Shown here one piece after another: positions 2,384 through 63,021 of a DNA stretch of 64,000 nucleotides (within the stretch, counting starts at the first letter, position 1; every line of letters begins with the position of its first letter). The translations under genes were made by a program, and so were the position numbers. The notes under the pieces are model-generated. The model had not been told where the DNA came from, made no database searches, and worked only from the letters and a program-made list of their open reading frames with translations. Source of the DNA: a virus; the IMG/VR virus record IMGVR_UViG_3300045988_138661, one strand, 5' to 3'.

Positions 2384-3412
2384 TTAAATCCAAGCCACTG
2401 GAACAGGTGTCCAAGTGCCTGTGGTAGAAGTCCTATATTTAAAAGTACCAGTTTTAGCAGTTGTATCTATCCATATTAAAGGCGCGGTGCCAGAAGCAGG
2501 CTATGTAGATCCAATATAAATAGAATAATCAGTAGTAGTTCCAACCGTAGGAGGAGTAGCATTATCAACATATTTTTTAGTTGCTAAATCCATATCTGCT
2601 GTAGGAATATAAGTATTATCCATGGTAATTTTACCATTTGCAGTCATTGTATTAGATTTATTTTTATATACTGCTTGTGTTACATCATCAGGAACAGTTG
2701 CTAATTTATCATCAATTTGTTTAATAGCACTACTTACTTTATTATTAATAGTTATTTCAGCATTATCTACTGCTTCCTAAATCTAAGCAACTTTTTCGTC
2801 TACATTAATTGCGGCGGCTCCTTCAATACCCATAACCGCAAGATAATCATCAGCTTCACTGGTCCAACCATTTAAAGTAATAACTTTTCCTTCAATGGTA
2901 TAATGATCTGTTTCTTTTAACATAATACCATTGTAATATAAAGTTAAAGCACTGCTATCATCAAAATCAAAAGGAATGGTAAATGTATTCTAATTTGCTT
3001 TTGCGGTAAATACATATTTATTTATAGGTTTACTTATTATATTAGTAGGACAAGTAACATTATGCTCAATTCCATTAATATTTATTGTACCAATTTTACT
3101 TCCAGTATCATCAATATTTTCATAAGATACTTCTGACAATTCCGCTAAATTACGTCCGTTTTCATCATAAGTAGCATAATCCGCGTGATCAGTATATAAA
3201 TTTAATCTTTTATCTTTAGTATCAATATAAAATTTATGAGTGTCTTCTGTAAAATAAGCATATCCTTCTGTAATAGGAGTACTGTCTGCTGTTGTAAATA
3301 AAGTTTTTCCTGAATCTAAGGCAGGAAAAGGAATTTTACCATTAACTACTTCAGCATTATCATAGGAAACTAAATTATTTGAGTTTCCTTTTAAAATTTT
3401 AAATAGAGCCAT
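2384..3412 (-). CDS. Putative tail fibre or receptor-binding protein, about 342 aa, with TAG.
   Basis: ORF 2990..3412 with SD ggagttattgaagatcgATG. Same frame continues through CTA triplets to TAA at 2386-2384. Confidence 0.4.
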
Positions 3413-3482
3413 CGATCTTCAATAACTCCTTTCTATAAATTAATGGTATAGAATTAATTAATAATTCTATACCATTTAGTTT

Positions 3483-4107
3483 ATTTATTCAAGAACAATC
3501 CAATAAACATCCAACCCATTACCACCAACAAATCCTTCTAAACGAGCTAAACGCTCCCAAATTTGTTGAACTACTTGGCTATCATCAATTACATAATAAT
3601 CTTCTTCTTTTACAATAGAATCTAAATTGAGCTTAGAATAAATCTAAAGACTTGCTGGCAATGTATTTAAATTATATAATAAATTATTAGAATCTTTTTC
3701 TATTTTGTAAAAAGTTATCATATAATTTAAATTACCAGATTTTTTAGTAGCACTATAATTTAAAACCCAAGGAAAAATAATTTTATCTTTATGAGTTAAA
3801 GTATCATAATATGGAACTGGATAAATACGTTTTTCATTGTCAGCATTAATATACTAAATAATACACATCATATTAGTTAAATCCATAGTGTCAAAATATC
3901 TATCTACTTCAAAATAAATAATTTCAGCAGCATGGTCGCCTTCAACTGTAATATAATTATTTTCATTACTAATAGTCCTTGAATTTAAATTTATCTAAAC
4001 TAATTTTTCATCTTCTGGAGCAGGAAAAGCTGGATATTTTACTGGAAAATTTTCATCTTGTATTTGATGTAAAACGCTATAATAATCAGTTGGATTAGTT
4101 ATCATTT
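3483..4107 (-). CDS. Hypothetical protein, about 208 aa, paralogous to the N-terminal domain of gene 4111..5794 (shared AEIIYFEVDRYFD / AETIYFQIDRYFD block). Candidate fibre chaperone or assembly protein.
   Basis: Hand translation from ATG about 4107 (ggtaaaataaATG) through three TAG to a stop near 3483. Not in the ORF track because of the TAG. Confidence 0.45.
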
Positions 4108-9000: not shown

Positions 9001-12000
9001 ATATTTATCATCTTCAACCTCATATGAACCTCCATCAGTTAAACGGCCAAATACTGGCATATTTTCAGCTTTAGAATTTGTTGGAATAATATATTTAAAT
9101 TCTTCATCTAAGCTTAAAGCAATAATTGGTCGATCTCCTAAAGCGGCATAACTATCAAGAAATACTGATGGATCAGTACGATACCATTTATCTACAATAT
9201 CGCTCTTTTTAGCCCCTGCTCCTGCGCCTTTAGTAAAAATTTTATTTACTCTTGAATCATTTGGGCTATAAGAATTATTTTGAGTTCCCATTAATTGCTT
9301 ATATTTATCTACCATTTTATTCTTAAAGAAAGTATAAAAATTATTCCAAAGAACACTATCATTAGTCGAAAAACTTCCTTCTTCAGTAGCATCAATATAA
9401 TATTCAAAAGATGGGATACCGGTATTATTAATACCTAGTTGAGTATCAATATCATAAAAGATAGGATACCAAATATAATGCTATTTACCGGTAGATTTTT
9501 GAACATTGCCTTTTTGCGGACCCCAAGAAGCAAACATTGCATTTTTTCCACGAGAATCATAACATTCAAAAATTTCCGTCATCAAAAGATAAGAAGCCAA
9601 ATATTCGATATCAAAGAAATTACTTAATTCATTTTTAAATTTAGCTTGACGGTATTCTTTACTATCTTTAGTATAAGTAATAGAATCATAAGTTACTGGT
9701 TTAGGCAATCTCCATCTTTCATCAATAAGATCTTCATTTTTAACAAAAGAATAATAATCTAAAGAAGAATTAAATTTATCAGAACTTAATACATAAATTT
9801 CATTTTTACTATCAACTAAAAGGTAGTAAGTATTTGTTTTATATACTTTACTCAAATCATTTGTAAGTTTTATACTTATATAATTTACTTTATTATTTTC
9901 ATTAATCTATTTATAATACCTTAATTCAGGATTATAATCTTCAGAAGCTAATTTATAAATAATTTTTCCATCTTTATTAACCCCATCTTCGATGTAATAT
10001 TCATTAGGGGTGTATATAGCTGCTGCAAGTCCTTCAACTTTAGTATAAGTACCCATAGATTGAAGCTCTAATTTCTATCCATCCTCAAACTCAATCTTAC
10101 CACAATCTAAACAGGTACTCCATACCCAACTAACTGCATCTTCCCAGTTAGACATTAAAGCTAAGAGCAATTCTTGTTTACTTGTATTATTACCAACATT
10201 AAATTCTATTTCTTCTCCATCTGGATTTTTTATAATCCATTTAATAGATTTTACACCAGTAATTTCATCAATTATTTCTTTTTTAATAAGCCTATCAGGA
10301 GCTACATTTTTTAATTCTTCTCCAACAATCTTAGTCTATGTTCCATCTGGGTCATCCCAGTCTTTTAAATTAAATAACTATTCAGCAATTAAATCATCAT
10401 TTGGATTATATCTTGGTTCAAAAGAATCAACAACTTTTGGAGCGCCTTTAACTAATTCAGGATTATCTCCATCTGGAGGAATTACCATATTAGGATTCCT
10501 AAATGATAATTTATAACGATTCCAAGGGTCGCGGAAAGAACAATATGTTCTTGAATTATTCTAAAATTCCCAACATTCAGCAATATCTCTTACTTTTGGA
10601 GTTCCATTAATTTGATTCTATAAAACCTTTTTATCAGGCTTAAATCCATAGCATTCATCTGACCCTTTGTCTAATAGCATATTATATTTACCAATAAAAA
10701 TACAATTACTGCTATTTTCTTTAGAATATGTATTATCATCATTAGACATATAATGGAAAGCTAAAACTGGGAATCCTTTCACTGAAGTACGATAATCTTC
10801 TAAATTTCCATATAAATTATAATTATCAAAAGAATCTTTATAATCTTCTACGGGATGTTTAGAATAAATTTCATTAACTAAATTAGCAAACCCTCTATTA
10901 TAATCTCCTGAAGATTCCATAAAATCTATTTTTAAAGTAAACTTAGTAGTACCAACTGTTTTATTATCCATATAAAACCATTCTAAATAACAAGGATGTT
11001 TAGTTATATCTTCATTATACTAATCTCCTGCTTTTTTATAAGCCTCAGCAAATGGGCCTCTATTTAAAAGCATTGATTTTTTACATTTAGCCTTATAATT
11101 ACGACGAGGATAAAATTGTGAAGAAGTGCCTTGGACTTGAAAAGTACATCCATTAAGAACAGTTATAAAACTAGGGCAATGATGTATATAATAATTCTAT
11201 ACAGCAGTATATTTTATTGTTTCTATCCCAGTCTCTTTATTTTTTTCAATTACAGGTTTCCATCCTTCTTTTATAGCAACTTTTTCTAATTCGCCACTAT
11301 TATAAGCAGCATCTAAAGCCGTATTAACAAATTCTAAAGTTCCTTCCTAACTTCCTTTTGCTTTAGAATAAGGTAATCTATTATCTGTGTTGTTTTTATT
11401 ATTTTTAGTAGTTCTTAAAATAATATAAGGCATTAAAGGATCAGTAGGATGATTATCATTATACTTTTTCATTTTAGTATAAGAGAATACATCATCTTTT
11501 AATACCGTGTTATTCTCGTAAAGGTCTTTTTGATCCCATTGTTTTATACTTCTTTTATCAAAAGCATAATTTTGGACTATTTCAGGAATAGTTAAATCTG
11601 TATCATAAACTCTAATACTATAAATATCAATATCACAAGTATTAGACATAAATTTAATGGAATCAGAATCAATATTCCAAACATCACTATTACAACGTAC
11701 AACACTAGTTAAAACGCCATTCATAAAAATTTCTAATAATTTAGAATTTCCGCCTTCTATATCGCTTTTCTTTTTAGTATAAACAAATGAAAGATTTAGC
11801 ATTTCATTTTCAATAAAATCAACTGAAACTGTTTCTTGAGCGCCATTAGCCGTAAATACAGCATCCTATGGACTAAAATAAATACCAGGAGAAACGGAAC
11901 TTCCTAATTTACCATACACACAAACTAAATTCTTTAAATTAAAATCTTGTTCTATTTTATTATACTCTAAATCATCATAACTATAATTAGTTGTCGGTAA

Positions 12001-52754: not shown

Positions 52755-52946
52755 TTTTTACCTCCAGTCTATGTTTATATTATACTCGAAAAAATTTTTT
52801 TTGTCAAGTTTCATTTAAAAATTTTTCTTTTTATATTTAAAAATTTTTTTAACAAAACAAATAACTTTTGCCCAATCACGCCCTACGATTTGACATTTTT
52901 TATTTTTTATTTTATTATTATTATAAGAAAAAGAAAAGGAGTATTT
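52755..52946. promoter_or_regulatory. Divergent promoter region separating the leftward recoded arm from the rightward standard-code arm.
   Basis: Minus strand: TTGACA-N18-TATAAT then SD. Plus strand: TTGACA-N17-TATTAT then aaaggag and ATG at 52947. Very AT-rich. Confidence 0.5.
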
Positions 52947-53802: not shown

Positions 53803-53920
53803 ATCATGATTTGAAATTAAAAATTGATTTGTTGTTTTAACCGTATTCTGAAATTGAAAATTGATTTAGATAAATTTAAATTATTCTTCGTGATTTGAAA
53901 TTGAAAATTGATTTAGATTG
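53803..53920. repeat. Three direct repeats of about 25 bp (core GAAATTGAAAATTGATTT), spaced about 42 bp apart. Iteron-like.
   Basis: tgatttgaaattaaaaattgattt / ctgaaattgaaaattgatttagat / tgatttgaaattgaaaattgatttagat, inside a 570-bp non-coding stretch. Confidence 0.6.
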
Positions 53921-54289: not shown

Positions 54290-54655
54290 ATGAAGAACAT
54301 TTCCAAAATCATCACCATGGCCATTGCTATCATTCTCTCCGTGTCTTTCTTTGGCCCGTTCCACGACCACACAACCGCGGAAGCCTGTGAGGAAGCGCCC
54401 CAGTCCTACGACCTCTCGGTCATTGAGAATTGGTGCGGTTCAGGCACGGAGCGCGGAAGTATCCGTTTCGTCGGCGCAGAGGTCTATGAGCGCGAGGGCG
54501 ATACACTGACGCTCATTGATGAGCAAGGCAATCTGTGGGACGTGGAAGCACTCAACATTGATGACAACGACTTCTTGCTCTTGTGGATTAACGACAATGA
54601 CACTGACACTGTGGAAGATGATACAATCATTAAGGTATGGAGAGAGGCTTACTAA
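54290..54655 (+). CDS. Secreted small protein, 121 aa, with a signal peptide (MKNISKIITMAIAIILSVSFFGP).
   Basis: ORF track. Promoter tattgacaatccagtagccatgtgctatact. RBS aagaaagaggtaaatcaaaATG. Confidence 0.6.
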   Translation: MKNISKIITMAIAIILSVSFFGPFHDHTTAEACEEAPQSYDLSVIENWCGSGTERGSIRFVGAEVYEREGDTLTLIDEQGNLWDVEALNIDDNDFLLLWINDNDTDTVEDDTIIKVWREAY

Positions 54656-54684
54656 GTCTCTCTCTTTCTTGCGGATCGGCGAAG

Positions 54685-54702
54685 ATTGTTAAAAAATTAA
54701 CA
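54685..54702. promoter_or_regulatory. Perfect palindrome TTGTTAAAAAATTAACAA (operator-like), about 25 nt upstream of a -35 hexamer. Also at 55109-55126, and a variant at 59041-59058.
   Basis: ggcgaagATTGTTAAAAAATTAACAAg and ggcgtagATTGTTAAAAAATTAACAAa are near-identical 27-mers. Confidence 0.5.
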
Positions 54703-54783
54703 AGCAAAGAAGAGTAAAAAACTCTTGACAAATGCGCAATGATGTGCTACAATGTAGATACAATAAGAAAGGGGAATACTCAG

Positions 54784-55074
54784 ATGACTAATAAGAATTT
54801 TTATAATGCTCTCAAAGCAGAAAAGGAACGGTTGATGAACGAAAGCAAGCAGGCATCCCGCGACTGCCAGATTAAGCATGGTGAGATGTCAAAGGCATGG
54901 AACATTGTCAATGCCCTTGAAAGCTTGGGTAAGTTTGGCACGCAGGAACTCAGCAACGCGTATGATAACTATGAGGAAGCCAGCTACGCAAGTATGTTAG
55001 CAGACAACCACTTCGATGACATTGATGAAGCCATTGATAAGATAAATGGATTGATGGGTCTTTACGAAGAATAA
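54784..55074 (+). CDS. Hypothetical protein, 96 aa.
   Basis: Promoter cttgacaaatgcgcaatgatgtgctacaat. RBS aaaggggaatactcagATG. Terminator agggagcagtaatgctccct. Confidence 0.6.
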   Translation: MTNKNFYNALKAEKERLMNESKQASRDCQIKHGEMSKAWNIVNALESLGKFGTQELSNAYDNYEEASYASMLADNHFDDIDEAIDKINGLMGLYEE

Positions 55075-55204
55075 GGGAGCAGTAATGCTCCCTTTCTAAC
55101 GGCGTAGATTGTTAAAAAATTAACAAAGATTTTTCTCAAAAAGGTCTTGACAAATCAGTTAGAATGTGGTATTCTATAATCACAAAGGGAAAGGGGAAAG
55201 AAAA

Positions 55205-55414
55205 ATGATTTATGGCATTGTTTATTATACTAAGGGCGGTCAGGGCTATCTCTTCCAGCAAGCGTTCGAAGAACAGCGCGCTATGGAGATTGCAGGTAAG
55301 ATGAACGACTTACTCGCGACAGGTGCTACGATGTATAATGATAAGTCCTATGGCAAGCTCGACTTGCGGAACGTTGAGTATTTCACAGTTGAACCCAGTA
55401 GCGAAATGTATTAA
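55205..55414 (+). CDS. Hypothetical protein, 69 aa.
   Basis: Promoter cttgacaaatcagttagaatgtggtattctataat. RBS aaaggggaaagaaaaATG. GC hairpin plus T-tract terminator follows. Confidence 0.55.
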   Translation: MIYGIVYYTKGGQGYLFQQAFEEQRAMEIAGKMNDLLATGATMYNDKSYGKLDLRNVEYFTVEPSSEMY

Positions 55415-55599
55415 GGGCGGGAGCGGGCTCCCCGCTCTTTCTCTTGCGCCGTGGGGCGCGTGTAGAGCGTCCCAGCCCGAACTTTATCACAGTAAAGCAT
55501 TAAAGCAAAATTTTTTCCATTTTTTGCCAAAAACCACTTGACATTCCTATCCCGAAATGCTATAATAGTATCATCAAAAGAAAGAAAGAGGTAAATCAA

Positions 55600-55722
55600 A
55601 TGTCTATTCACGATGGTCTTGTTCTTCTCGCTATCTATGTTGGTGTTATCGGCGCGGGCGCGCTCATCGAATACGTGGAGCACCGCGTAAAGAGAGCGGT
55701 TCATCGCAGAAAGAGAAGTTGA
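55600..55722 (+). CDS. Hydrophobic micro-protein, 40 aa (MSIHDGLVLLAIYVGVIGAGALIEYVEHRVKRAVHRRKRS): one TM helix plus a basic tail.
   Basis: Own promoter (cacttgacattcctatcccgaaatgctataat), RBS and terminator (agagaagtt gaaaa aacttctct ttttttt). Confidence 0.4.
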   Translation: MSIHDGLVLLAIYVGVIGAGALIEYVEHRVKRAVHRRKRS

Positions 55723-55776
55723 AAAACTTCTCTTTTTTTATAAAAAACACTTGACAAATCCAACAGCCGGTGCTAT

Positions 55777-55925
55777 ACTATAATTGTCAAGAGGGGAAGA
55801 GATAAGTTACTTCCCAAAGGGTGTGTGGCAAGTAGCCATTTCCTTTGATAAAACGCTTAGTTGGAGCGACCAGACAGGGCGCGCACTGTCCGCAAAAGTA
55901 GAGAATAAAAAAATTCCAACTTCTC
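55777..55925 (+). ncRNA. Candidate non-coding transcript from promoter 55751-55776; begins UGUCAAGAGG and contains hairpins.
   Basis: No credible ORF (track ORF 55784..56023 runs across the next promoter). Stem gggaag/cttccc and gacag-ggcgcgca-ctgtc. Confidence 0.3.
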
Positions 55926-56104
55926 AAAAAAACCTCTTGACAGACCCCTTAGAGTGTGATACAATAAGGATGTCAAGAGGCAGACAGGAGCGAACAACCT
56001 CTCCCCAATGCGTAGTTGGGTGAAGTAAAACAAAATCTCCCTACCGAACAAAAAAGTTCAAAAAACCTCTTGACAAACCCCTTAGAGTGTGATACAATAA
56101 GGGT
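55924..56104 (+). repeat. Tandem duplication of a 44-bp promoter unit (aaaaacctcttgacaNaccccttagagtgtgatacaataagg) at 55924-55967 and 56061-56104.
   Basis: Near-identical copies. The first is followed by AUGUCAAGAGG..., the second by the tRNA-like element. Confidence 0.6.
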
Positions 56105-56110
56105 ACAGAT

Positions 56111-56222
56111 GGCGGTGAGGTAGAACGGTTCTACTTCCACAAAGATGGCTGAGATACAAAAGTGTCGCTCACTTGGAAACGTTCGCTATTGGAAAATGTG
56201 GGTTCAACTCCCACCACCGCCT
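56111..56222 (+). tRNA. tRNA-like element of 113 nt: 7-bp acceptor stem (GGCGGTG/CACCGCC), D-arm (GTAG-AACGGTT-CTAC) and canonical T-arm (GTGGG-TTCAACT-CCCAC). Has an insertion of about 40 nt in the anticodon region, so either an atypical or intron-containing tRNA, or a tRNA-like RNA.
   Basis: Arms identified by hand. Possible anticodon stem 56136-56140 / 56189-56193 enclosing the insert. The promoter places the TSS about 5 nt upstream. Length is atypical and the anticodon is unresolved. Confidence 0.45.
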
Positions 56223-56302
56223 CAAAATTTTTTGAAAAAACACTTGACAAATCCAAAAGTAGATGTTATAATGTAGATACAATAAGAAAGGGGATAAAAA
56301 CC

Positions 56303-56566
56303 ATGACTACTTACAACATTCTCACTATTGGCCCTTCTCGTGAACCGAAGCTCGCGGGCAAGTTCAACGTTGCGGATACTGAAAACTTCCTTGACCGGTT
56401 AGAGGAAACGCTCTACATTCTCTTTGAATTAGAGCCGAAATCCCGCGAATGGAAACGCGAATTTCTCAAACATCTTTTTGCGGAATTCACTTATCACTTT
56501 TGCGAAGATTCCCGCGTTGAAAAGCAAGGCAACAATATTATCGTTTATGAAGAAAATGAGGGCTGA
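56303..56566 (+). CDS. Hypothetical protein, 87 aa (MTTYNILTIGPSREPK...).
   Basis: Promoter cacttgacaaatccaaaagtagatgttataat. RBS aaaggggataaaaaccATG. Terminator gggctgaaaaagccc plus T8. Confidence 0.6.
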   Translation: MTTYNILTIGPSREPKLAGKFNVADTENFLDRLEETLYILFELEPKSREWKREFLKHLFAEFTYHFCEDSRVEKQGNNIIVYEENEG

Positions 56567-56682
56567 AAAAGCCCTCATTTTTTTTCAAACTTTTTTCAAA
56601 AAACTATTGACATTTACTGCCCTAAGTGGTATTATAATATCAGAAAGGGAAAGGAAAATCCCGAACACCAGAAAGGTTAGCT

Positions 56683-56874
56683 ATGGATACTTTCGAAATG
56701 TATTACGAGAAATTCATGAAGATGCGCAAGGCTGACATTATTCGCGAGGGTCAGACTTGGGATATTTGGGCAAACTGCCAAAGCACTGCCGATAGCCTGA
56801 TGAAGTGGACAAAGCCCGTTCTTGCGAGAGTTCTTGCTGGACGCCTGGACCGTTTGGAAAAGCGGGGCTACTAA
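56683..56874 (+). CDS. Hypothetical protein, 63 aa.
   Basis: ORF track. Promoter ctattgacatttactgccctaagtggtattataat. Terminator agcggggctactaagccccgct. Confidence 0.55.
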   Translation: MDTFEMYYEKFMKMRKADIIREGQTWDIWANCQSTADSLMKWTKPVLARVLAGRLDRLEKRGY

Positions 56875-56959
56875 GCCCCGCTTCTTTCTTGAAAAAAGTT
56901 CTTGACAAATCTCGAATCTATGGTATAATAAGAGTATAAAAGGAAAGGGGATAAACAAA

Positions 56960-57199
56960 ATGACTTTGGACATGATTAAAAATGTAATTGGCACGGTAAA
57001 AGGCGCGCTGATGTTCTATGAGGGGAATGGCGTCGAAGTGATAAACGAAAACACTTGCGGTCGCTATCTCAAAGACCGCAAAGGTCGCATGACTTTGAAT
57101 GGTGATGTGTTAGACGCAAGCGAAGAGTGGGTGCTGGGATTGCCGGTCAGCGATTTGAAAGCCAGAGATAACGTTCTCATTATTTATGTTGATGGCTAA
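56960..57199 (+). CDS. Hypothetical protein, 79 aa.
   Basis: ORF track. Promoter cttgacaaatctcgaatctatggtataat. Terminator atctcccc aaaaa tggggagat plus T7. Confidence 0.55.
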   Translation: MTLDMIKNVIGTVKGALMFYEGNGVEVINENTCGRYLKDRKGRMTLNGDVLDASEEWVLGLPVSDLKARDNVLIIYVDG

Positions 57200-57253
57200 A
57201 ATTAAATTTTTTGAATTAAAAATCTCCCCAAAAATGGGGAGATTTTTTTGTAC

Positions 57254-57440
57254 ATTTTATCTATTGACAATCCCAAAACTTCATGGTATAATCGGCCGGC
57301 GCGCGAACGGACCTGGCGCGCCGAGTTTTTGTCAATAGGCGGGTTGCACAAATTTTTGGGGCAAATCTTTGTGCATAATGTCAATAGACAGAATCCCGAA
57401 TTGGTGCTATACTATAATCACAGTAAGGGAAGGAAAACCT
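57254..57440 (+). promoter_or_regulatory. GC-hairpin module copy A: promoter P1 (TTGACA 57254 / TATAAT 57277), GC hairpin 57283-57315 (cggccGGCGCGCgaacggacctgGCGCGCCgag) plus T5, TTGTCAAT, dyad TGCACAAA-N17-TTTGTGCA, then promoter P2 (TAGACA-N17-TATACT).
   Basis: Read directly from the sequence. Comparable modules at 60790-60960 (B), 62828-63010 (C), 59041-59250 (D) and 54093-54280 (E). Confidence 0.5.
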
Positions 57441-57464
57441 ACCAAACCGGAAAGGGATAACAAC

Positions 57465-57773
57465 ATGATTAACATTCGTTCTATTCTCAAACTCGCTGAA
57501 AATGACGGTCTGACCCTCAAACATGGCAAGAAGGTCAATTACAAGTCCGGCTGGCAGGTCGCCACTAATGGCGTTGAATGTAAGACCGCCCGCGAAGCCA
57601 TTAACGCGGTCAAGGAATATGGCGGCAACTGCGGCGTGTGGTTTGCGAACGGCATTTATTATGTTGACAAGTCCAAGAGGGTGCAGACCAAGAAGCAGGC
57701 GCTTGAAATCGGCAAGGCGTGCAACCAAATCAGTGTATATGGCTGGGCGCGCGGCAATCTGGCTTACTGCTAA
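57465..57773 (+). CDS. Hypothetical protein, 102 aa.
   Basis: RBS ggaaagggataacaacATG. ORF track frame. Confidence 0.6.
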   Translation: MINIRSILKLAENDGLTLKHGKKVNYKSGWQVATNGVECKTAREAINAVKEYGGNCGVWFANGIYYVDKSKRVQTKKQALEIGKACNQISVYGWARGNLAYC

Positions 57774-57851
57774 AAAATTAAATAGAGGGCTTGACAAAAC
57801 AAGCCCTCTATGCTATAATAAAGGCACAATAAAGGAAAGGGAGAAAACAAC

Positions 57852-58121
57852 ATGGAAATTAAATATGCTCACGAAATGGCGGCTATCGCTAAGGACATCC
57901 GCACCGCCAAGCGCGCCAAAGATACTGCTACGGCCCGCGCCTATCTTGAAGAAAACCTGATGAAAGATATTGAAGACCACGCGGAAAAAGGCGAGAATTA
58001 TCTGTCTCGCTGTCTCGTTGCCATTGAAGATGAAGCCGTGAAAGAAGCCTTAAAAAATCTTTTGCGGAATTATGGCTATACAACTTCTTATTCAAACGGC
58101 GTTCTCACCGTAAGGTGGTAA
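57852..58121 (+). CDS. Hypothetical protein, 89 aa.
   Basis: ORF track. Promoter with the -35 hexamer inside the palindrome agagggcttgacaaaacaagccctct. Terminator agagggaaaatttttccctct plus T. Confidence 0.6.
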   Translation: MEIKYAHEMAAIAKDIRTAKRAKDTATARAYLEENLMKDIEDHAEKGENYLSRCLVAIEDEAVKEALKNLLRNYGYTTSYSNGVLTVRW

Positions 58122-58225
58122 GGTAAAAGAGGGAAAATTTTTCCCTCTTTTTCTAAAAAACTTCTTGACAAATCCAAAAGCAGATGTTATAATAAAAGCA
58201 CAATAAAGGAAAGGGGAATAAATTA

Positions 58226-58297
58226 ATGGAATGTCCTTATTGCGATGGAAAGTGCGGAACACATGCTCAATGCGTTAAATGCGGAAAAGGGAAATAA
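58226..58297 (+). CDS. Candidate 23-aa Cys-rich micro-protein (MECPYCDGKCGTHAQCVKCGKGK), a zinc-ribbon-like peptide.
   Basis: Strong RBS aaaggaaaggggaataaattaATG. Four CxxC-type Cys pairs. Confidence 0.3.
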   Translation: MECPYCDGKCGTHAQCVKCGKGK

Positions 58298-58299
58298 AA

Positions 58300-58656
58300 A
58301 TGGGAACGGAATTCTTAATTATTGGCGGAATTTTTAGCGCAGTCCTTGCGCTGTTTGTCTGCCTTGTCTGTTGGTGCCGCATGGAAAAGTCTCACCCAAT
58401 AGTCAGATTGTTAGTTGGTATCCTTATTTCGTGCGCCATCGGTTATGGCATGACGGGCGCGTTAGTCGCAGAACATAATGCCGATAGAAAAGCATGGAAC
58501 AACGGCTATTGCTCCATTTGCGGAAATGAAATGGAATTTGTAAATGCTTCTCATGGTCGGCATGGAACAGTTTATTACTATTGGTATTGCGATGAGTGCG
58601 GTCATACGTTAGAGTTAACTTCTAACTTTGCAAAGGGGGAAACAGATAATGAATGA
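58300..58656 (+). CDS. Membrane protein with two TM helices plus a C-terminal zinc ribbon (CSICG...CDECG), 118 aa.
   Basis: RBS ggaaaagggaaataaaaATG. ORF track frame. Confidence 0.55.
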   Translation: MGTEFLIIGGIFSAVLALFVCLVCWCRMEKSHPIVRLLVGILISCAIGYGMTGALVAEHNADRKAWNNGYCSICGNEMEFVNASHGRHGTVYYYWYCDECGHTLELTSNFAKGETDNE

Positions 58657-58855
58657 AAAAACTATCCCACAGGCTTTGAGAGAACAGGCAGACGCCATTG
58701 AAAAGTTAGCTCAAAGAATTGCGAAAGAAAGCAAGGAATTTCCAGACGAGGAAGACCGCAGAGACGGCGGAGAACTTGCGGACGCTTTATTTGCGATTCA
58801 ATCAAAGCTCCGCTATGAGTACTCTTGGATTGCGGAAACCATGTGGGACGTGTAA
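58649..58855 (+). CDS. Hypothetical acidic protein, 68 aa.
   Basis: RBS caaagggggaaacagataATG, overlapping the previous stop. Terminator tcaggcgagat ttaat tatctcgcctga plus T. Confidence 0.5.
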   Translation: MNEKTIPQALREQADAIEKLAQRIAKESKEFPDEEDRRDGGELADALFAIQSKLRYEYSWIAETMWDV

Positions 58856-58934
58856 TTTTCAGGCGAGATTTAATTATCTCGCCTGAAAATTTTTTTCAAA
58901 AAACTATTGACAAACTCACCCCGTTGTGGTATTA

Positions 58935-59036
58935 TAATCATGTCAAGAGGAAGTGGTAAGCCTCTTGAAGTAGTGAACAAATTTCTCATACTATGGTTTG
59001 CGCGGTAGCCGATAATTACCGCGCCCTTTCTATTTC
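58935..59036 (+). ncRNA. Candidate small RNA or leaderless micro-ORF transcript. Starts AUGUCAAGAGG, has a 5-prime hairpin caagagg/cctcttg and a terminator gcgcggta-gccgataat-taccgcgc plus T-run.
   Basis: Promoter ctattgacaaactcaccccgttgtggtattataat immediately upstream. A possible 22-aa leaderless ORF (MSRGSGKPLEVVNKFLILWFAR) ends at TAG. Confidence 0.3.
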
Positions 59037-59258
59037 ATTTTTGTTAAAATTTTAACAATGATTGTTCGGCCGGGCGCGCACGGACCACGCGCCCGGAATT
59101 TCAATTATATCACAGGGCCAGCAATTTGTCAAGCAAAAAGTCGCGAAAATTTGCATAAATTATTTTTCCCAATTTTGTGCGATCCGTCAATAGACAAATC
59201 TCTAAGAGTGTGTTATATTATAATTGTTCCAAGGGAACAGAAAGATGAGGTAAATAAA

Positions 59259-60745: not shown

Positions 60746-60967
60746 ATGAAAAATCACCCAATTTGGGTGATTTTTTTTGTTTACTTTCACTATTGACAAA
60801 GTTCCTTGAATGTGATAAAATCGTCGGCGCGCGGACGATTGTGGCGCGCCGAGTTTTTTGTCAAGAGGTAAGTTCAACAAATTTTCGCACGAATTTTTGT
60901 GTAAAATGCCAATAGACAAAAATCCTATAATGTGGTAAGATGTATACAACAAATAGAGGGGGCTAAA

Positions 60968-61466: not shown

Positions 61467-61539
61467 ATTAAAAACTCTCTATTGACATTTTTGTTATAAT
61501 ATGATATTATTATAATAGAAAAAGGAAAGGGTGATAATA

Positions 61540-62077: not shown

Positions 62078-62530
62078 ATGAAAGCTACTGGTATCGTTCG
62101 CAGAATTGATGACCTTGGACGTGTGGTCATTCCGAAAGAGATTCGCCGGACTTTGAAGATCCGCGAGGGCGACCCGCTTGAAATCTTCCTTGGAGAGGAC
62201 AACTGCGTTTGCTTCAAGAGGTATTCAGTGCTTGGTTCGTTGACCGAAGAGGCTCTGCGAACCGCTATTACAATGGCGTCAAATTCCGGTCTACGCCCTA
62301 TCGCAATTTATGATACTACTGTAAAACTGCGGGGCATGGAAAACTTTTCGGCCTATGTCCCGACCCAGTGGGAATTTGAAAGAAAGCCATTTGTTTTCAA
62401 TAATACCTATGGCGTTTATCCGGTTTGCGCGGACGGCGACCTTGTGGGTTATGCGGTTTGCGACCAGCAAGACATGGGGTGTGAAATGGACATGATTGTT
62501 CGCTACCTCAGCATTGTGTCTGAACGTTAA
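62078..62530 (+). CDS. AbrB/SpoVT-family transcriptional regulator, 150 aa (N-terminal swapped-hairpin domain MKATGIVRRIDDLGRVVIPKEIRRTLKIREGDPLEIF).
   Basis: The N-terminus matches the hallmark AbrB/Abh/SpoVT N-domain almost residue for residue. Own promoter and RBS. Confidence 0.75.
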   Translation: MKATGIVRRIDDLGRVVIPKEIRRTLKIREGDPLEIFLGEDNCVCFKRYSVLGSLTEEALRTAITMASNSGLRPIAIYDTTVKLRGMENFSAYVPTQWEFERKPFVFNNTYGVYPVCADGDLVGYAVCDQQDMGCEMDMIVRYLSIVSER

Positions 62531-62783: not shown

Positions 62784-63021
62784 AATTTGAGGTGAAAATT
62801 CACCTCATTTTTTTGGTTATTTTGCCTATTGACAAAAATCCAATAGTGTGATAAAATGGCCGGCCGTTTACGTATGCCACGGCCGGAACTTCAATTATAC
62901 CAGAAGCCAGCAAATTTGTCAATCGGCAAAATGCACAAAAATCTAATTAGTTTTTTTCCCAAAATGTGCTTGACAAAATCCAGCAGATGCGCTATAATGT
63001 ATTTAGAAAGAGGTGAAAAAC

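Follow-up and report, generated by a model that had tools for sequence, protein, structure and literature searches.

Inverted repeats matching the clostridial Rex operator at two early promoters of a large TAG-recoded phage

The early region of a large phage (IMG/VR virus record IMGVR_UViG_3300045988_138661) carries a short inverted repeat that recurs upstream of predicted promoters, raising the question of which protein, if any, reads it. We analysed a stretch of 64,000 nucleotides from this record (the window) together with a 10-kb extension supplied by the source scaffold, which is 190,948 bp long and identical to the window across the 10.7 kb compared; in all, 74 kb of the ~191-kb genome were read. 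We take the phage to be a gut phage, reading the sample label LIJU14-1 as pointing to the Li 2014 human-gut dataset, and a megablast search of both window halves against 50,697 phage records gave no match. The first-pass annotation of this DNA had proposed that the repeat is the operator of a dimeric regulator, either an AbrB-like protein encoded nearby or a host factor. Rex is the repressor of Bacillota that senses the ratio of reduced to oxidised nicotinamide adenine dinucleotide (NADH/NAD+); it binds DNA when the ratio is low and leaves it when NADH rises. Judged from sequence comparison, the three copies of the repeat are probably Rex-type operators, with a dimer of the host's Rex as the likeliest binder.

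The repeats and the clostridial Rex box

The 18-mer TTGTTAAAAAATTAACAA occurs exactly twice in the window, starting at 54686 (box 1; one base later than first reported) and 55109 (box 2), and TTGTTAAAATTTTAACAA, starting at 59041, is a third copy (box 3). Copies 1 and 2 had been described as perfect 18-bp inverted repeats, and their 7-bp arms, TTGTTAA and TTAACAA, are indeed perfect, but they flank an asymmetric AAAA centre; copy 3 alone, with the centre AATT, is a true 18-bp palindrome. The earlier term AT palindrome does not apply, because each arm holds one G or C. A conserved 27-mer said to enclose the first two copies, cggcgNagATTGTTAAAAAATTAACAA, was borne out, with 26 of its 27 bases identical between 54677-54703 and 55100-55126. 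The distance from the box end to the -35 hexamer, put earlier at about 25 bp, is 21 bp for box 1 and 20 bp for box 2. The variant placed ahead of module D is present as box 3, but the next plus-strand promoter (59191) lies 132 bp away and the geometry of boxes 1 and 2 is not shared, so that siting upstream of promoters holds for those two and not for copy 3. With the centre left free, TTGTTAA-N4-TTAACAA (TTGTTAANNNNTTAACAA) has exactly three matches in the window against 0.00 expected from dinucleotide-preserving shuffles, and all three lie outside the 54 kb of AT-rich sequence in which a chance match would be most probable. These three are also the only boxes in the 74 kb of phage sequence read.

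Comparison with known operator motifs, a check that the earlier annotation had put forward, gave an exact match: TTGTTAANNNNTTAACAA is the Rex-box consensus published for Clostridiaceae, as quoted in papers that cite it. Each of the three boxes has 0 mismatches at the 14 specified positions (14/14) of a consensus drawn from Clostridiaceae and applied to a phage whose host we infer. The Rex motif obtained for C. thermocellum by DNA affinity purification sequencing, and validated by electrophoretic mobility shift assay, also fits TTGTTAANNNNTTAACAA, and Rex sites with the same consensus have been predicted in Caproicibacterium (Oscillospiraceae, class Clostridia). In S. aureus the Rex site is TTGTGAA-W4-TTCACAA, sites without mismatch bind best, and NAD+ enhances while NADH reduces binding; the centres of boxes 1 to 3 (AAAA, AAAA and AATT) are all A/T, fitting this W4. 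Clostridial Rex operators resemble the phage boxes in their 18-bp consensus with an A/T-rich centre, in tolerating G at position 5, which yields the TTGTGAA half-site of other taxa, and in lying between genes, ~80-100 bp ahead of the start codon. For boxes 1 and 2 the distance from box start to start codon is 98 and 96 bp, and both lie, as Rex operators do, in non-coding promoter regions; box 3 is intergenic and not close to a plus-strand promoter.

The same arrangement is found in bacteria. We scanned 596 Gb of bacterial and archaeal genomes for pairs of exact boxes separated by 12-19 bp and obtained 5 loci, of which 2 are bacterial operons and 3 are phage-like early regions. In an Erysipelotrichaceae genome (L046), 3 boxes separate a bcd-etfB-etfA-hbd-crt operon from a thiolase gene, and in a second genome (L044) 2 boxes lie just upstream of a NuoE/NuoF-type hydrogenase operon, with the genes confirmed by Pfam in both cases. 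Butyrate-pathway and hydrogenase genes are reported Rex targets. Boxes at these bcd/thiolase and hydrogenase loci, like those of the phages, stand in tandem ~31-34 bp apart. The three phage-like array contigs had been assigned to bins of Christensenellales, Acutalibacteraceae and one more Bacillota genome, a host range in keeping with Rex as the binder. Applied to IMG/VR, the exact tandem scan gave 21 loci, against the 5 in bacterial and archaeal genomes, and the TTGTGAA type of tandem was found at 3 IMG/VR loci.

Arrangement of boxes in related phages

Relatives were found through similarity to the protein of gene 2, which lies downstream of box 1. Boxes 1 and 2 are exact in all 8 (the L034-L041 set), and box 3 is kept in 5 of these 8 IMG/VR contigs, in 2 of them as TTGTGAAAAATTTAACAA, a T-to-G change that stays within the Rex consensus. 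Box 3 is also kept in 4 further metagenome contigs (L054-L057). Beyond these relatives, the 21-mer AGATTGTTAAAAAATTAACAA occurs at 32 IMG/VR loci. Among them are the orthologues of boxes 1 and 2, the L002 group, in which the promoter family is a different one, and box-rich early regions of other large phages. Allowing at most 2 mismatches, we counted 32 boxes in the 12.5 kb searched of L007, 12 in 11.5 kb of L010, 10 in 12.4 kb of L031, 10 within 1 kb in L004, and 9 in 1.7 kb of L025. When no more than 1 mismatch was allowed, the 12.5 kb of L007 still held 24 boxes, against 0.03 expected. Among the variant half-sites of L007, TTGTGAA/TTCACAA predominates, which is the Rex half-site in other taxa. 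The logo drawn from 122 boxes that had not been chosen by the search string is A[G/C][A/T]TTGTTAAWWWWTTAACAA[T/A][C/G]T, with centres that are nearly all A/T.

The position of the boxes relative to promoters is also fixed. In the phage studied here, each early gene has a near-consensus sigma-A promoter (TTGACA-17-TGnTATAAT) preceded by an A-rich element, as well as a terminator and a strong ribosome-binding site, and ~45 such promoters were predicted in 17 kb (window plus extension). Boxes stand at two of these; at the other ~43, none was found, even degenerate, the best candidates having 3-7 mismatches and no fixed gap. Among 29 independent promoter families with a box no more than 70 bp upstream, the modal gap to the predicted -35 hexamer was 20-22 bp in 9 (exactly 20 in 7) and 31 bp in 3, and the box-to-box spacing in arrays peaks at 33-35 bp. 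The fixed gap and the spacing place the boxes on one face of the helix relative to the promoter.

Box subtype varies among phages. A 103-kb phage contig of 32% G+C (L059), one of the three TTGTGAA-type tandem loci, has 8 boxes at 2470-3825, all TTGTGAA-N4-TTCACAA, which suggests that box subtype may follow host lineage; a subtype defined by T or G at position 5 could serve as a marker for host prediction. Next to the boxes of this contig lie genes that, on a visual reading of their N-terminal sequences, resemble recA and peptide deformylase.

Several related phages carry operators of a second host regulator. Consensus LexA (Cheo) boxes, CGAACATATGTTCG, are present in L010 (e.g., 1939-1973 and 10896-10951), L004 and L007, usually 30-70 bp upstream of a Rex-type box, and L010 has 11 of them against 0.23 expected. 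No LexA box was found in the window. The occurrence of LexA boxes beside Rex-type boxes suggests that these early regions are generally wired to global repressors of the host.

Candidate binding proteins and proposed working

The proposal that the repeat is the operator of a dimeric regulator is supported by an inverted repeat kept in relatives, by its over-representation in the early regions of related phages and by its phasing to promoters, and of the two binders suggested at first, the host factor is favoured by the exact match to the clostridial Rex box. Rex genes are rare in viral collections. In tblastn searches, B. subtilis Rex (a query checked by its Pfam domains) and Rex proteins from gut bacterial contigs had no match in the window, the 10-kb extension or the related loci retrieved by then. 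An alignment-based scan for Rex across 2.9 million IMG/VR viral contigs, which used a single degenerate peptide pattern, returned only two unrelated small contigs, and a single-sequence scan of IMG/VR gave nothing relevant. The one phage-database match to Rex that we examined, MT835478, is a bacterial contig and was set aside as contamination. The failure to find a phage Rex, together with the LexA boxes in relatives, favours the Rex of the host, and we infer that this protein rather than a phage product occupies the boxes.

A number of observations weigh against this assignment. Genes 2 and 3, the genes downstream of boxes 1 and 2, are phage genes and do not encode fermentation, NAD(H) or redox enzymes as the members of clostridial Rex regulons do, although such gene content defines a Rex regulon and not the operator itself. 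Boxes 1 and 2 are centred near -65, which is not where a repressor would obviously bind; reported Rex sites overlap the promoter, as at C. difficile fdpF, where the site overlaps the -35 hexamer, whereas the proximal phage box stands 20-22 bp upstream of it. The phage boxes also show extra conservation in their flanks: both the A[G/C][A/T] beside each arm and the one-sided GGCGNAGA flank of copies 1 and 2 lie outside the published Rex consensus and are absent from the 4 bacterial boxes examined, and arrays in related phages are far denser than at the two bacterial loci. Conservation in the nearest relatives is not specific to the boxes, because the whole intergenic regions (54656-54783 and 55075-55204) are 93-97% identical in nucleotide sequence to those of L034-L041, above the 74-80% identity of the gene-2 protein. 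All promoter positions are consensus predictions, and many of the geometry counts rest on them. Finally, a Rex-like protein could be encoded elsewhere in the phage, because the sequence read covers only 74 kb of ~191 kb, and every box-bearing phage locus long enough to judge (L007, L010, L030, L031, L074 and the present phage) encodes a small winged-helix protein of ~110-125 residues.

This winged-helix family is the best candidate for a phage-encoded reader of the boxes, one that would shut off or time early promoters, with the identity to the Rex box due to mimicry or convergence; in the mimicry version, the phage protein could also occupy the host Rex regulon. The family has weak MarR-like matches (Pfam E ~4e-4, which falls short of the curated cut-offs; PDB profile E 0.005-0.1). 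Its best-conserved residues, Q(K/R)xSALxRQM, sit at the putative recognition helix, and in L007, L010 and L031 box arrays precede winged-helix genes, as autoregulation would predict. The extra flank conservation of phage boxes, unseen in the few bacterial boxes examined, would also be explained. However, hhalign detects no relationship between the family and Rex (probability 0.9%), and the exact consensus match and the G/T alternative at position 5 would therefore be a coincidence or need special pleading. Moreover, the boxes of L007 precede nearly all transcription units rather than winged-helix genes in particular, the present phage has two winged-helix paralogues and three boxes but none near those genes, and the canonical LexA boxes in the same phages point to host regulators. 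We consider a phage-encoded reader unlikely, though a serious contender. The AbrB-like protein (62078-62530) named at first is encoded in the same early region and has an N-terminal domain of AbrB/MazE type (Pfam PF04014, E 5e-10; PHROG antitoxin family), but this domain is generic and nothing links the protein to the repeats. AbrB-type targets are loosely defined, A/T-rich and contain TGGNA, and no TGGNA is present in either 27-mer or around box 3; AbrB/MazE-type swapped-hairpin domains are not known to read a TTGTTAA-N4-TTAACAA palindrome. A homologue was absent from the parts read of L007, L010 and L031, which is weak evidence because these loci are partial, and the L002 group showed similarity over 42 N-terminal residues only. 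Binding by this protein would leave the exact Rex-box identity unexplained, and we regard it as very improbable.

Two further alternatives concern what the boxes do. If Rex binds, the boxes might be decoys on multi-copy phage DNA that pull Rex off host operators and so derepress the fermentation and NAD+-regenerating pathways of the host to the benefit of the phage. Many of the boxes counted above in L007 (24-32), L004 and L025 match the consensus exactly and presumably have high affinity, some arrays in L025 and L004 adjoin no recognisable promoter, and exact tandem boxes are concentrated in viral collections (21 loci, against 5 of which 3 are phage-like). The present phage, with three boxes in the sequence read, would nevertheless make a weak sponge, and the phasing of 20 or 31 bp to the -35 hexamer and the 33-35-bp spacing argue for contact with the promoter, because a decoy needs neither; decoy action as the sole function seems quite unlikely. 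Alternatively, the boxes might bind no protein and be weak RNA hairpins or terminator elements in read-through transcripts, or passively duplicated intergenic DNA. Each box does lie 15-21 nt past a terminator hairpin, and the 27-mer shared by copies 1 and 2 could reflect duplication. The reading as an RNA hairpin was rejected because the predicted folds (-3.3 to -4.1 kcal/mol) are no better than those of shuffles (z -0.8 to -1.3); Rfam and ARAGORN searches of the window found nothing that would account for the boxes. The motif also recurs in unrelated contexts in dozens of phage contigs with fixed promoter geometry, and at bacterial operons of the Rex-regulated kind. A role without protein binding is accordingly disfavoured, to the point of being scarcely credible.

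If host Rex is the reader, a dimer on box 1 or 2 would cover about -74 to -56 and so lie directly ahead of the A-rich, UP-like element that each of these two strong early promoters has; from there it could modulate recruitment of RNA polymerase. Repression would be the likeliest outcome: Rex could hamper the carboxy-terminal domain of the polymerase alpha subunit at the UP-like element, or it could stop transcription that runs past the preceding terminator. A rise in NADH would release Rex from the boxes, and under repression full expression of genes 2 and 3 would require a reduced, NADH-rich cell. Box 3 might instead act as a protein roadblock that separates the terminator of a plus-strand small RNA from a minus-strand promoter facing it. 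Replicating phage DNA would also titrate Rex, as a side effect and perhaps, in box-rich relatives, as the main effect. The fixed helical phasing would also fit an activator-like contact, and a centre near -65 would be unusual for a repressor. Class I activator sites are classically centred at -61.5 or -71.5, and the box centre, near -64.5, is off these positions. An activator-like role has been suggested, but not demonstrated, for Rex.

The upstream, face-specific siting of the boxes resembles a class I activator site such as those of CRP and FNR (TGTGA-N6-TCACA and TTGAT-N4-ATCAA), which are palindromes of similar length, and the G-type boxes of relatives contain TGTGA-N6-TCACA; the window boxes, however, read TGTTA-N6-TAACA and fit neither consensus. 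The operator itself is of a known kind, and Rex operators are otherwise known only in bacterial redox regulons; we found no report of Rex boxes in phage genomes in the literature searched, and their systematic use in phase with the early promoters of phages seems to be new. The closest precedents are the use of host LexA by phage GIL01 and the CtrA sites of alphaproteobacterial phages. In the Bacillus thuringiensis phage GIL01, LexA acts at promoter P1 with the helper gp7 (PMC4551915), so that operators of a host global repressor lie at phage promoters and a host signal decides transcription, and the LexA boxes beside Rex-type boxes in the related phages extend the parallel. The signal in the present phage would be NADH/NAD+ and not DNA damage, we identified no helper protein, the window carries no LexA box, and the phage is large (~191 kb) and TAG-recoded and shows no evidence of lysogeny. 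In alphaproteobacterial phages, where a 'lytic deferment' pathway has been proposed (PMC9437464), sites for the host master regulator CtrA are enriched and are proposed to time phage genes to the state of the host; regulator, host phylum and signal all differ from those considered here.

These comparisons suggest that, in this phage and many of its relatives, early transcription is tied to the redox state of the host. If host Rex does bind, phages would read host NADH/NAD+ directly at early promoters, a new developmental input beside LexA (DNA damage), CtrA and quorum signals. A wider proposal, which is possible but which we advance only tentatively, is that a large group of phages of gut and rumen Clostridia use host Rex as a gauge of NADH/NAD+. 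Their early promoters would be fully on in a reduced, active cell, as a metabolic checkpoint or dormancy switch, or would respond when an NAD+-depleting defence shifts the ratio, releasing counter-measures such as genes 2 and 3. The arrays of relatives might soak up Rex and reprogram fermentation, and, together with LexA boxes, two host stress signals could be integrated without a phage repressor. If true, this would have consequences for how we understand the way in which the abundant uncultured phages of the gut deal with hosts that are starved or have activated their defences.

The early region and its other elements

Up to ~53,930, the window has 28% G+C and minus-strand genes, virion proteins included, and long open reading frames appear in this part only when TAG is read as a sense codon, the longest with 2,760 aa. 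From ~53,950 on, it has 43% G+C, the standard code and dense small plus-strand genes. The step from 28% to 43% at ~53,930 is abrupt; it is no assembly artefact, because the same step is present in 8 related IMG/VR contigs. The features around the boxes are collected in Table 1.

Table 1. Positions of the boxes and of neighbouring features in window coordinates, unless stated otherwise.
Feature	Position	Strand	Remarks
Intrinsic-terminator-like hairpin and T-run, end of gene 1	54640..54669	+	invariant in relatives
Flank of box 1, cggcgaaga (5' part of the 27-mer)	54677..54685	+	one-sided
Box 1, TTGTTAAAAAATTAACAA	54686..54703		about -74 to -57 of gene-2 promoter
Gene-2 early promoter, TTGACA-17-TGcTACAAT	54725..54753	+	A-tract just upstream
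Gene 2	54784..55074	+	96 aa, acidic, helical
Terminator-like hairpin after gene 2	55073..55094	+	
Box 2, TTGTTAAAAAATTAACAA	55109..55126		about -73 to -56 of gene-3 promoter
Gene-3 early promoter, TTGACA-17-TGgTATTCT	55147..55175	+	
Gene 3	55205..55414	+	69 aa
Terminator hairpin and T-run of short non-coding transcript (promoter 58907)	59000..59040	+	ends right before box 3
Box 3, TTGTTAAAATTTTAACAA	59041..59058		intergenic, between convergent transcription units
Consensus promoter (family D13), followed by GC-rich hairpin	59132..59104 (hairpin 59103..59070)	-	reads towards box 3
Winged-helix paralogue 1	window-equivalent 65062-65436 (L053 11825-12199)		just past window end
Winged-helix paralogue 2	window-equivalent 67413-67790 (L053 14176-14553)		just past window end
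Copies of promoter-hairpin cassette	57223-57330, 60749-60860, 62785-62922, 59070-59132, 54094-54127		

Genes 1 to 3 matched no Pfam or PHROG family. Neither gene 2 nor gene 3 has known relatives beyond this phage clade, within which gene 3 is 95-100% identical. Box 1 begins ~21 nt past the stem of the gene-1 terminator, box 2 begins 15 nt past that of the gene-2 terminator, and box 3 lies 17 nt past the terminator stem at 59000-59024. Flanks of the form GCGR-AGA, like that of box 1, are also present in unrelated phages. Box 3 lies ~40-57 nt downstream of the inferred start of the minus-strand promoter, and the order of box, hairpin and minus-strand promoter recurs in a distant phage (L030).

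In the cassette listed in the table, a terminator and a consensus promoter are followed by a GC-rich hairpin (CGGCGCGCG...CGCGCGCCG and a T-run) that starts only ~4 nt past the -10 hexamer, and two of its copies have a convergent minus-strand consensus promoter on the opposite side. The transcripts would be ~30-40 nt long, and the cassette may act as an RNA polymerase trap, an origin primer RNA or an insulator. Three direct repeats of ~23 bp (TGAAATTGAAAATTGATTTAGAT-like) at 53808-53920, exactly at the boundary between the AT-rich and the GC-richer part, may be iterons or a packaging or origin element. A very AT-rich promoter and leader (TTGACATTTTT...ATTATTATTATAA...AAAAGG) links both compartments, with one copy at 52890-52939 in the AT-rich part and one at 61482-61531 in the early region, 76% identical.

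A cloverleaf resembling a transfer RNA (tRNA) lies at 56108-56228; its acceptor stem has 7 bp, GTGGGTTCAACTCCCAC forms the T arm, and the central arm is long. The fold is more stable than those of shuffles (z -3.5), and there is a weak Rfam match to transfer-messenger RNA (tmRNA; 16.8 bits, E 0.0019), with no ARAGORN call. In this TAG-recoded phage, an unusual suppressor tRNA is one possibility and a tmRNA-like RNA another. At 55751-56100 and 58907-59040, consensus promoters drive short non-coding stretches that start with an GTCAAGAGG-like hairpin and end in a terminator, and these are probably small RNAs of the phage.

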